A DNA stretch of 15,373 bases from a virus (lineage: Duplodnaviria; Heunggongvirae; Uroviricota; Caudoviricetes): the IMG/VR virus record IMGVR_UViG_2667527592_000004, positions 1 to 15,373 of that record; one strand, 5' to 3'. Below, piece after piece: positions 3,001 to 6,000 of the stretch. A program made the position numbers. Every line of letters begins with the position of its first letter. Position 1 is the stretch's first letter.

Positions 3001-6000
3001 GAATGCGCAGCCATAGCTCAGCCTATTTTCGGGAACTAGTGGAGACGCGGGAACGACTGGTGAGAGACGCTGATGATTTTGTCGCAGTGGCGATCGCTGG
3101 TTTCAACCAGATGAATCGTGGTGGCCCTGCAGGAAATATTGTGGCTGTGCATTGACTCGCAATATTCATACCGGATCACTTCCGGCAATTTGTGAGTAAA
3201 AAGATTCGGTATCAAAAGAGGTGAGTATGGCTAACGCCTGGCTCAGATTATGGCATGACATGCCAAATGACCCTAAGTGGCGAACAATTGCCAGGGTGTC
3301 AGGGCAGCCAATTGCAACAGTGATGGCAGTGTATATCCACCTCCTGGTGAGCGCGTCACGAAATGTCACGCGAGGTCACATTGATGTCACGACAGAAGAT
3401 TTGGCAAGTGCGCTCGACGTGACAGAAGAGGTAATTGATTCAATTTTGCAGACGATGCAGGGGCGGGTACTTGATGGTAATTTAATCACTGGATGGGAAA
3501 AACGCCAGGTGCTGAAAGAGGACAACGGCAATATTTCGCAAACCGCAAAATCTCCTGCAGAGCGCAAGAGGGCGCAGCGAGAGAGGGAAAGAAAGCGGGA
3601 ACAAAATGGCGATTGTCACGGCGCGTCACGAAATGTCACGCACATGTCACGACGAGTCACGACAGATAAAGATACAGATAAAGATACAGATCAAGAAGAT
3701 CAAAACACTATGGTCCATGGCGTAAAAAACGCCACGAACCAGGCAGGGGATGTTCAGACCGTCAATCCTGGTCAGCCAGCAGGCACGACACCGGAAGCCG
3801 ATTCAGCGTATGCGCTGAAAGCCGATTCGGGCGCTGTGCTGCAGGTGATGACCGCAAGGCCGGAGCAATCACACCAACTGCAGCAGCCTGAAGCCGATTC
3901 CGCCATTCAGCGGGAAGCCGATCGGGTAGTCCCGGAAAACACCGGGCAGCCTGTGGGACGAGTGGATTATCCGGATGTGTTCGAACAGGTCTGGCGGGAA
4001 TACCCGTTGCGTGCTGGGGCAAACCCGAAGAAATCCGCTTTCAGTGCCTGGAAAGCCAGATTACGCGAGGGGGTGTCACCAGAGGCCATGCTGGATGGCG
4101 TGAGGCGTTACGCAAGATACTTGGCGGCTACCGGGAAAACGGAAACGGAATTTGTTCAGCGAGCGACGACGTTTTTTGGACCGGACCGGAATTTTGAAAA
4201 CCCCTGGCTGCTCCCGGTAAGCGGCACGAACAACCAGCGTTGTGTGAATCATATTTCTGAACCGGATACCGAAATTCCGCCTGGCTTCAGGGGGTAAGTG
4301 CTGATTTCAGGTCATGAGGTAATTTTCAGGAGGACTTGTGGCAAAAGTTTTTACACAAGAAGAGCGAGAAAAAATTAAAGGGCAGGTTGTTGAGCTAGTA
4401 CGCCAGAGTGGGCGCGAGACGTTACGACAACTGGAAGCTAAAACTGGGGCAACAAGATATCTGATGAGCGTTCTGGCCAGAGAGCTGGTTGCCAGTGGCG
4501 ATGTATACAATTCTGGCTACGGGTTATTCCCGTCTGAACAGGCTCGTAAAGACTGGCAAAATGCCCGCAAAAAATTATCGAGGGAAAAGCTGAAGAAACC
4601 GGTTGTGGTTGATCCGGACCTTATCTGGTCATTACCTGACGGAGAAATACGTCGCTACGACAGGAGATTGAACATAATTTGTAGCGAGTGCCGGAAGAGC
4701 GAAGTTATGCAGCGTGTACTGGTGTTTTATCAGGGAAACTTTTTTTGACGCGACGAAATTAAAGAGCATTTGTTCAGATGTGAATTACCATTTTTGTGGC
4801 GCAGGATAGAGCTAAAGTGGTTGTCTGCTTTGTACCAGAAGCGGGCGTTGTAATGTTTGCCAGACAAAATCTGGTCGGCTCAATGGTTATACCCCAGCTT
4901 CTGGTATAACCATGCGCGTTGTCGGTTACCGGCACTATCCGTAGCAGGCGCAACATCAATGGATAGGCATGACAGCATTTAATCAGTCAACGACAAGGAC
5001 TGATTTTCTGATAATCGTTCAGCCCGTAGGTGTCGCACAAAAAATGGTGTGGCTGGCAATCCAGTCTGCGTCCCAGAAATGGTCGATGCCGCTGAAGGAC
5101 TGGCGTATGGCAATGAGCCGCTTCATTATCGAGTTCGGTGACCGCCTGGACGGTCACTTCTGAGAAAAAGTATTTACACAGAATCCTAAACAGGCTCCTT
5201 CCAGATGAAAAAGGAGGGATCGGTTGTGACAATAAATGTGTCTTTGCTACAACGCAGATGCCAATTATTCACCGAACTTCTCCTGCTGGGTTACTTGTGA
5301 TGAGGCCGGACCATGGCTGTTCTCAATACCGGGAAATGCTCAGGATACTTTTTCATGTACTGCCATGATAAATACCAGCGGGCTTTCTCCCTGATTTTCA
5401 TAGAAATGAGGGACGTCTGTTCTGGCTGTTGCTGAACAGCCTGTTTTTACCAAATACTCGTGCTCCTGTATGCCCAGTGTGAGCGTACCCGACTGAACAA
5501 AAAACAGTTCAAGCGTTCCTTCCGTGTGGCCGGGGGAAGCAAATTTTTCCCCGGGCTGCATTTCCCACATCCAGAGCTCGGTCATATCAGGGCCACCGGA
5601 ACCTGCGAGCAATCTTGCTTTCCCGCCTTTTTCACCTTCCCACAATTCAGGGATCTCACTTTCTGTAATGAGATGCACGGTCGGTTTGGAACTGACATCC
5701 ACAAAATCAGCTACCGAAACTCCCATCGCGGCGGCTAGGCGGCATAACATGGTAATGCTGGGATTCGCCCGGCATCCCTCTATCTCAACCAGCGCTCCCT
5801 TGCTGACGCCTGCTCGACGGGAGAGTTCATCAAGGGATATTTTCTTTTGCTTGCGATAAAGTTTAATTCGCTGAGATACGGCTTCATTCACAGTGCTGAC
5901 GATAGAATTTACATCGGTCATTAAATTGACTTTTTTGGGCATTGGTCATTATCATAGAATAAATTAGTCATTATAGGATTGTCACATGTTAACAGTATCA

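Follow-up and report, generated by a model that had tools for sequence, protein, structure and literature searches.

The stretch analysed here (the window; 15,373 nucleotides of IMG/VR virus record IMGVR_UViG_2667527592_000004) is the early and regulatory region (15.4 kb) of a lambdoid Escherichia coli prophage with Shiga-toxin genes, and its replication initiator gene encodes a protein that ends in a peptide common to the host primosomal protein DnaT. In viral replication modules, initiators with this tail are followed by a DnaC homologue or by no loader gene, and initiators with a different recurrent tail are followed by a lambda-P-like loader. From these comparisons, we estimate a probability of about 0.5 that the tail recruits a DnaC-type loader, which here would be the host DnaB·DnaC complex. 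Natural domain swaps single out a peptide of ~13 residues as a candidate DnaB·DnaC recruiter and make the DnaT question directly testable. If true, this reading explains the loader-less replication of Shiga-toxin (Stx) phages, other lambdoid phages and IncX resistance plasmids, predicts that such phages and IncX plasmids depend on host DnaC, and supports a phage origin of the dnaT-dnaC operon. A portable tail motif linked to DnaC-type loading appears to be undescribed so far. A full-text literature search for PPGFRG and IPPGFRG returned no relevant paper, a literature search on the Rac proteins YdaU and YdaV found nothing on replication, and neither DnaT nor iterons come up in the papers on Eru typing of the replication regions of Stx phages.

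The initiator and its DnaT-like tail

The initiator itself is an ordinary, common kind of gene that annotation pipelines already name. The profile of PHROG 3729 ('replication initiation protein') matches residues 1-356 on profile positions 1-356 (E 6.6e-255), the NCBI name of the protein is 'phage replisome organizer', and some phage records use 'DNA replication protein O' or 'Primosomal protein I'; the latter, RAST-style label is due to the tail alone. DNA that is 96-98% identical occurs in phages Tritos, Evi and vB_EcoS-689R5, a full-length copy is present in 1647 of 5426 complete E. coli genomes (~30%), and 582 relatives were found in IMG/VR. The layout of the gene and of its product (amino acids, aa), for which an AlphaFold model was built on 22 homologues, is as follows (pLDDT, per-residue confidence of the model; ORF, open reading frame).

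3227-4297, plus strand: replication initiator gene, 356 aa (ORF, translation, PHROG 3729)
3227-3466, plus strand: N-terminal winged-helix-type domain, residues 1-80 (helical at 2-77 in the model), presumed iteron-binding module
3554-3604, plus strand: basic helix, residues 110-126, AERKRAQRERERKRE (a helix in the model), between the N-domain and the linker
3614-3958, plus strand: disordered linker, residues 130-244, ~115 residues, pLDDT below 50
3959-4216, plus strand: C-terminal helical domain, residues 245-330, pLDDT 80-95
4223-4297, plus strand: DnaT-like C-terminal tail, residues 333-356, …NNQRCVNHISEPDTEIPPGFRG, plus the stop codon

Among homologues, R115 in the basic helix is nearly invariant, and the linker varies in length, with large indels in the alignment and total lengths of 302 to 374 aa. 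The C-domain, with the motif YPxxFExxWxxYPxRxGxNxK…RRY…GTEFV…TFFGP…W, is the best-conserved part of the initiator; its family comprises 4191 representatives at 50% clustering and has no Pfam family match. The window protein has no match to Pfam Phage_rep_O (PF04492, the lambda O N-domain), and its scores against Phage_rep_org_N (PF09681) and TIGR01714 are below the thresholds (13.1 bits versus 23.3 and 15.4 versus 49.8, respectively). One window-type locus (among L122-L200) has a 607-aa ORF that begins like the initiator and has the C-terminus …WRPNVSNMRVVK, which may reflect read-through, a fusion or an error in the assembly.

The initial annotation had proposed a near match between the last 14 residues and the C-terminus of DnaT, and comparison with the K-12 translation bears this out, with 11 of the 14 residues identical (ISEPDTEIPPGFRG versus VSEPDSQIPPGFRG). 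BLASTP against E. coli K-12 DnaT aligns the tail only, pairing residues 332-356 with DnaT 155-179 (15/25 identical, pairwise E 9e-8). The same stretch matches the PDB DnaT chains 6aep, 2ru8 and 9zbt, and residues 333-356 match positions 156-179 of the NCBIfam DnaT model (NF002770). The profile search for a DnaT domain, which had been proposed as a check, was negative: Pfam DnaT (PF17948) does not match the window protein, and NF002770 scores 18.3 bits against an equivalog cut-off of 201, through the tail only. Moreover, the three-helix domain of DnaT (84-153), which binds single-stranded DNA (ssDNA), is absent from the window protein, hhalign of the C-domain family against this domain gives a probability of 2%, fold searches with the window protein returned no DnaT structure, and the acidic TDKDTDKDTDQEDQ stretch is not homologous to the PriB-binding linker of DnaT. 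The window protein is an initiator of the lambda-O/replisome-organiser type and not a DnaT homologue.

Recent recombination with host dnaT was considered as a source of the tail and rejected, as DNA identity is ~70% and 7 of the 13 conserved residues are encoded by different synonymous codons. Since the synonymous codons have diverged from those of dnaT, the tail peptide is old and under purifying selection. Conservation across DnaT orthologues is 0.89 in the final 11 residues and 0.887 in the DNA-binding domain, which makes the two equally well conserved.

Tail type and loader type in phages and plasmids

These data raise the question of how widely the tail occurs. Viral sequences were scanned with a back-translated DNA pattern for PD..IPPGFRG-stop, and at least 119 loci were found. 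The ORFs ending in IPPGFRG-stop represent at least 11 N-domain families, including the window type, DUF1376 (Rac YdaU), HTH_36 and Phage_rep_O (the tail-bearing relative L022 matches this profile with E 7e-30), and several of these families have no Pfam match. At least five C-domains carry the tail, namely, the window type, the lambda-O-like type, Phg_2220_C, the YdaU type and the true DnaT domain, and distant relatives carry the variant IP[DEFNSW]GFRG. Rac YdaU of K-12 (L288:3620-5230) ends …RQVNTVSLPDSAIPPGFRG, with 16 of 19 residues identical to the DnaT tail. In a 271-aa ORF of two IMG/VR loci (L049 and L064), an unrelated N-domain (MAGDWIKMRADL…) precedes the complete C-terminal half of DnaT, in which both three-helix domain and tail are present (63% identity, E 4e-41). 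This ORF adjoins a cytosine methyltransferase-like gene, and there is no loader nearby.

The tail is also borne by plasmid initiators of the Rep_3/pi type, in which it is joined to the WH2 domain (the second winged-helix domain) by a short acidic stretch: a Serratia-type Rep (L471:771-1742) ends …SEPDTQIPPGFRG, and the IncX1 Rep of pB16EC1113-2 (L493:283-1101) ends …LDTRIPYGFRG. In PLSDB, the match to the last 24 residues extends to the very end in 679 plasmids. Outside Enterobacterales, the species-level genomes show the motif in three contigs only, labelled as a Chryseobacterium sp. (L439) and as metagenome-assembled genomes of Proteobacteria (L396) and Bacillota (L430); these contain an ordinary dnaT of enterobacterial type or an initiator from a prophage of the E. 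coli type and are probably cases of contamination or mis-binning.

Another important question is which loader accompanies the tail. The initial annotation had stated that no helicase loader follows the initiator, and this is the case: the next gene encodes a DUF977 protein (4338-4748), from there to Q nothing in the window resembles a helicase, primase or loader, and blastx of the 2.5 kb downstream detected no DnaC-like or P-like gene in the window. Thus, the window lacks the two-gene module of initiator and loader known as O-P, YdaU-YdaV or G38P-G39P, and in the complete phage Tritos (46,360 bp, 56 features), whose module is 98% identical, no other replication gene was found. The DUF977 gene is a positional analogue of ren that fills the position of the loader gene and is not a loader; as a substitute loader DUF977 was rejected, being present both with and without DnaC-like or P-like genes. 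Of the 98 loci in the window class, 90 are without a loader, and the remaining 8 have a DnaC paralogue 3-7 nt downstream. Because these 8 loci and most other classes possess a DnaC paralogue, the absence of a loader is not constant among tail-bearing initiators.

The following counts were obtained for the two tail types, with the GFRG set restricted to viral loci having at least 900 nt downstream.

GFRG tail, 185 loci: DnaC homologue in 63 (start 3-7 nt after the stop), lambda-P-like gene in 0, no loader in 122
…ALDCPDW[CRH]DD tail, 80 loci: DnaC homologue in 0, lambda-P-like gene in 80, no loader in 0

The ALDCPDW set includes the N-domain of the window protein as well as DUF1376. Seen from the loader side, the ORF upstream of YdaV-like loaders ends in IPPGFRG at 67 of ~71 evaluable loci. 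In species-level genomes, lambda P lies downstream of the tail at none of 120 loci. The host operon has the same synteny, dnaC starting 2 nt after dnaT.

In natural tail swaps, the rest of the protein is the same. The window N-domain and C-domain with an LDC.EWQ tail (P0071 and P0119, in Serratia and Yersinia prophages) are followed by Phage_lambda_P, and the same two domains with IPDGFRGA, IPEGFRG or IPDGFRSEL tails (P0092, P0078 and P0042) are followed by an IstB/DnaC-like gene that overlaps the stop codon. Lambda O itself ends …LDLTNTDWIYGVDL (…LDLTNTDW…) with P next, and homologues of its C-domain that carry the GFRG tail (34% identity, E 2e-25) have DnaC-like genes or nothing next. The three-helix domain of DnaT, in turn, occurs with P-type loaders where the GFRG tail is absent. 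The tail, and not the C-domain, thus behaves like the partner-specific hook. The window-type C-domain family has many further tails, several of them recurrent, such as HSGF..RDYG…W.KG, MGFAQP.P.GSY…LP.W and …W.ELG.K.G…RGESM (among P0241-P0388), and in the one informative context (P0276, L371) an IstB-like loader and a DnaB helicase follow; C-terminal tails may generally encode partner specificity.

Could the peptide have been retained for some other reason? With another role in replication, or none, it might serve as a tag for degradation or for chaperones, or be a relic, kept by linkage, of common ancestry with dnaT, in which case the helicase would be recruited by the C-domain or N-domain, as in the Rep-DnaB contacts of plasmids. 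C-terminal peptides are often degrons, the conservation peak lies in the C-domain, and the phage proteins with the whole DnaT C-terminal half show common descent. We nevertheless consider this possibility very unlikely, as the peptide has been kept despite saturated synonymous change, unrelated initiators (plasmid Rep_3 among them) have gained it repeatedly, and it is replaced by a different tail whenever the loader is lambda P, a pattern unlike that of a relic.

Several points weigh against recruitment of a DnaC-type loader by the tail. The association is comparative, many of the loci are near-identical E. coli prophages, and the independent domain/tail combinations number ~10. For the 122 of 185 tail-bearing loci that have no phage loader, any link to DnaC would run through that of the host. 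The C-domain is without a match among solved structures in the fold search. In addition, two sets of DnaT experiments assign the C-terminus a role in assembly: as summarised in PMC5314882, Szymanski (2013) found that DnaT lacking the C-terminal 18 residues forms dimers in place of trimers, and DnaT84-153, from which residues 154-179 have been removed, binds ssDNA less cooperatively than DnaT84-179 (PMC4132743). Finally, the authors of a 2026 cryo-EM study of the preprimosome (PMC13377028), who describe the mode of DnaB/DnaC recruitment as unknown, favour the N-domain of DnaT as the recruiter.

The DnaT experiments also speak for a reading in which the tail is a self-association element that builds an origin-wrapping oligomer without a heterologous partner, and iteron initiators of this kind must oligomerise. 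Such a role is unlikely in our view: a shared intramolecular receptor is hard to reconcile with a tail that stands on at least five unrelated C-domains and directly after WH2 of Rep_3, and self-association does not predict strict exclusion from lambda-P modules.

In the cryo-EM preprimosome (PMC13377028), the C-domain of DnaT was built from DnaT84-153 (4OU7), PriA is contacted through the three-helix bundle and PriB through the acidic linker around D66/D70. That study gives no residue list that would place the DnaT tail, and, as it lies outside the modelled PriA/PriB contacts, the tail is apparently free. This bears on the possibility that the tail docks PriA or PriB, so that a PriA-dependent primosome forms at the melted origin and then brings in host DnaT, DnaB and DnaC. 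DnaT is indeed a partner of PriA and PriB, and PriA-type primosomes end in DnaC-mediated loading, which fits the association with DnaC. We judge this route quite unlikely, since the structures assign both contacts to elements of DnaT that the window protein does not have. The DnaT-type route to the host primosome proposed in the initial annotation therefore stands in part: it gains indirect support from the association of the tail with DnaC-type loaders, and PriB is unlikely to be the partner, since both the acidic linker of DnaT and its PriA-docking three-helix domain are absent from the window protein. DnaB·DnaC is more likely than PriB to be the partner.

Returning to the recruitment of DnaB·DnaC, a wider version of this reading can be offered tentatively, as somewhat short of probable. 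The motif …[ST]xPDxxIPxGFRG would be the element by which DnaT hands the preprimosome to DnaB·DnaC, an Enterobacterales-confined, portable loader-recruitment peptide common to DnaT, a dozen phage initiator families and IncX-type Rep, with an LD..DW tail in its place whenever the loader is of the lambda-P type, and dnaT-dnaC would be a domesticated phage cassette of 'initiator C-terminus + DnaC'. Descent of dnaT-dnaC from a phage cassette is suggested by the same gene order in ydaU-ydaV.

The putative origin inside the initiator gene

The gene very probably contains the origin at which its product acts. Iterons and an origin within the coding sequence had been proposed in the initial annotation, and the PHROG 3729 assignment, the iteron statistics and the position of the gene agree with this proposal. 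The elements concerned are the following.

3351-3394, plus strand: iteron cluster 1, cores at 3355, 3365, 3375 (degenerate, GTCACA) and 3386, in the N-domain coding sequence
3413-3424, minus strand: single inverted extended iteron CTCGACGTGACA, the reverse complement of TGTCACGTCGAG
3612-3664, plus strand: iteron cluster 2, five GTCACG cores at 3615, 3625, 3635, 3646 and 3656, in the coding sequence of the disordered linker
3662-3724, plus strand: AT-rich segment, candidate DNA-unwinding element by analogy with ori-lambda
3711-3741: inverted repeat with 13-nt arms and a 5-nt loop (AAAAA), directly right of the AT-rich segment

The window contains 15 copies of GTCACG where 5.0 ± 2.3 are expected, and none of 200 shuffles reached 15; 10 of the copies fall within 3355-3661. 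The two clusters are real, and their spacing, described earlier as strictly 10 bp, is 10/10/11 bp in cluster 1 and 10/10/11/10 bp in cluster 2, i.e., one helical turn; the pattern GTCACR-N4-GTCACR has 5 matches versus 0.01 expected. As noted in the initial annotation, the 21-mer GCGCGTCACGAAATGTCACGC is duplicated, with exactly two copies (0 expected) at 3351 and 3621, 270 bp apart, and a tandem repeat follows the iterons: the 12-bp unit ACAGATAAAGAT is present in 2.9 copies at 3662-3696 (Tandem Repeats Finder score 63). The core of the inverted iteron lies at 3418-3423, and its extended copy is 92% complementary to 3645-3656.

The GC content of the gene is lowest (38%) at 3650-3724, where the tandem repeat lies; the repeat encodes the acidic, low-complexity TDKDTDKDTDQEDQ stretch, and a 360-aa variant of the initiator contains one extra 12-bp unit. 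The iterons likewise leave a footprint in the protein in the form of SRNVT… peptides, cluster 1 encoding SRNVTRGHIDVT, and their copy number varies between homologues. The inverted repeat at 3711-3741 resembles the palindrome to the right of ori-lambda. On the minus strand, it has the score of a terminator-like hairpin, and its equivalents in relatives are only weak and non-homologous.

Are both arrays binding sites? Relatives at 45-55% identity use different cores, GTAACGC in L284, GTAACG(T) in L286 and GTCACG in L287 and L281, and each of them carries its own core in both arrays, which lie 250-272 bp apart. Since relatives with a different core have it in both arrays, both are probably binding sites. 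In all four relatives, AGATAA(A/G) tandem repeats follow the arrays at the same place. A DnaA-dependent origin was rejected, as DnaA boxes are not enriched and none lies near the iterons.

According to the proposed mechanism, transcription from the early promoter would yield the initiator, whose winged-helix N-domain would occupy the GTCACG iterons, one helical turn apart within two arrays separated by ~260 bp. The AT-rich tandem repeat beside the second array would then melt, a step suggested by analogy, and the C-domain together with the tail (…SEPDTEIPPGFRG), carried on a flexible linker of ~115 residues, would capture a DnaC-type loader-helicase and deliver it to the opened DNA. Iteron binding by the N-domain and firing of the origin are predictions from sequence. 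The tail would act as a portable docking peptide common to host DnaT that couples the initiator to a DnaC-type loader. As the phage is without a DnaC paralogue, which it would have lost, the partner would be host DnaB6·DnaC6, captured directly by the tail.

Gene context and comparison with known systems

In the rightward early operon, the initiator gene comes third, behind cro and a cII/YdaT-like gene, and it is transcribed from the immunity region (1752-3155). A promoter and terminator scan of 2400-4900 gave results at chance level. The other features of the window are listed below.

1-45, minus strand: DicF RNA, cut by the window start
1752-2525, minus strand: cI-type repressor (Pfam and PHROG matches)
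2518-2733, plus strand: Cro (Pfam and PHROG matches)
2730-3155, plus strand: cII/YdaT-like gene (Pfam and PHROG matches)
4338-4748, plus strand: DUF977 / LygF / 'Ren-like' protein (Pfam DUF977, E 1.7e-29; PHROG 142)
5340-5942, minus strand: HTH_3 + Cupin_2 regulator, between DUF977 and hok
5986-6681, divergent from the 5340-5942 gene: B3/4-domain protein, without a PHROG family
7146-7320: sok RNA (113 bits)
7258-7470: Hok ORF (hok/sok-type toxin-antitoxin)
7639-9395: 204-aa protein (PHROG 35814) overlapping the start of an HTH + ImmA/IrrE (Peptidase_M78) protein
between the ImmA/IrrE-HTH protein and Q: DUF968/HNH protein and RusA
11194-11889: Q
12100-12345: three tRNAs just upstream of stxA (ARAGORN: Thr-cgt, Arg-tcg, Arg-tct)
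12439-13398: stxA
13411-13674: stxB
13756-13964: match to the small RNA STnc100, right after stxB

The divergent pair at 5340-6681 looks like a moron, and Tritos has an FRG-domain gene at the same position. Tritos also carries the pair formed by the PHROG 35814 protein and the ImmA/IrrE-HTH protein.

The window system can be compared with lambda O and ori-lambda. Both initiator genes occupy the same position in the early rightward operon, contain the origin at the junction of their halves, with iterons followed by an AT-rich segment, and encode an N-terminal DNA-binding part, a disordered linker and a C-terminal partner-binding part, and both have a Ren-like gene downstream. However, neither the Phage_rep_O N-domain nor the C-domain of lambda O matches the window protein in sequence. 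Ori-lambda has four 18-bp iterons, whereas the window has 6-8 bp cores with 10-11 bp phasing in two arrays ~260 bp apart, the additional array lying inside the N-domain coding sequence. The window tail is …IPPGFRG in place of the lambda …LDLTNTDWIYGVDL, and no P gene follows the window initiator. From the organisers of the SPP1 G38P type (Phage_rep_org_N, TIGR01714) and the DnaD N-domain, the window protein differs in its scores below threshold, in its Gram-negative host and in having no cognate loader or helicase gene.

The likeness to E. coli DnaT is limited to the last 22-25 residues, with the core S-E-P-D-x-x-I-P-P-G-F-R-G, and, at the level of gene order, to the DnaC-family gene that in related phages starts a few nucleotides after the initiator stop, as in dnaT-dnaC. 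In contrast to DnaT, the window protein has no DnaT N-domain, no homologous acidic linker and no three-helix domain, and it probably binds a specific origin instead of joining PriA/PriB at forks. The Rac YdaU-YdaV module shares the tail of YdaU, ydaS/ydaT upstream in the manner of cro and the cII-like gene, and DUF977 (ydaW) downstream. It differs in the DUF1376 N-domain, in a different C-domain and in the DnaC paralogue YdaV, which lies 7 nt downstream of YdaU and is absent from the window.

The IncX and Rep_3 initiators bind iterons, as is presumed for the window initiator, and resemble it in having no loader of their own and bearing a GFRG-type tail; unlike it, they are plasmid proteins with a WH1-WH2 fold to which the tail is attached directly through a short acidic stretch. 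Further counterparts are the O157-type siblings and DopC-DopE (PMC5509034), which are O-like proteins joined to a DnaT-derived element; that O-like proteins contain a C-terminal element of DnaT was pointed out for DopC by Brezellec (2017, PMC5509034). Some of these siblings have the same N-domain as the window protein (85% identity) and the same iteron-coded peptides. Unlike the window protein, they possess the PF17948 domain without a GFRG tail and end …ALDCPDWCDD, always with a lambda-P-type loader next, so that the O157-type siblings represent the reciprocal combination of the window initiator.

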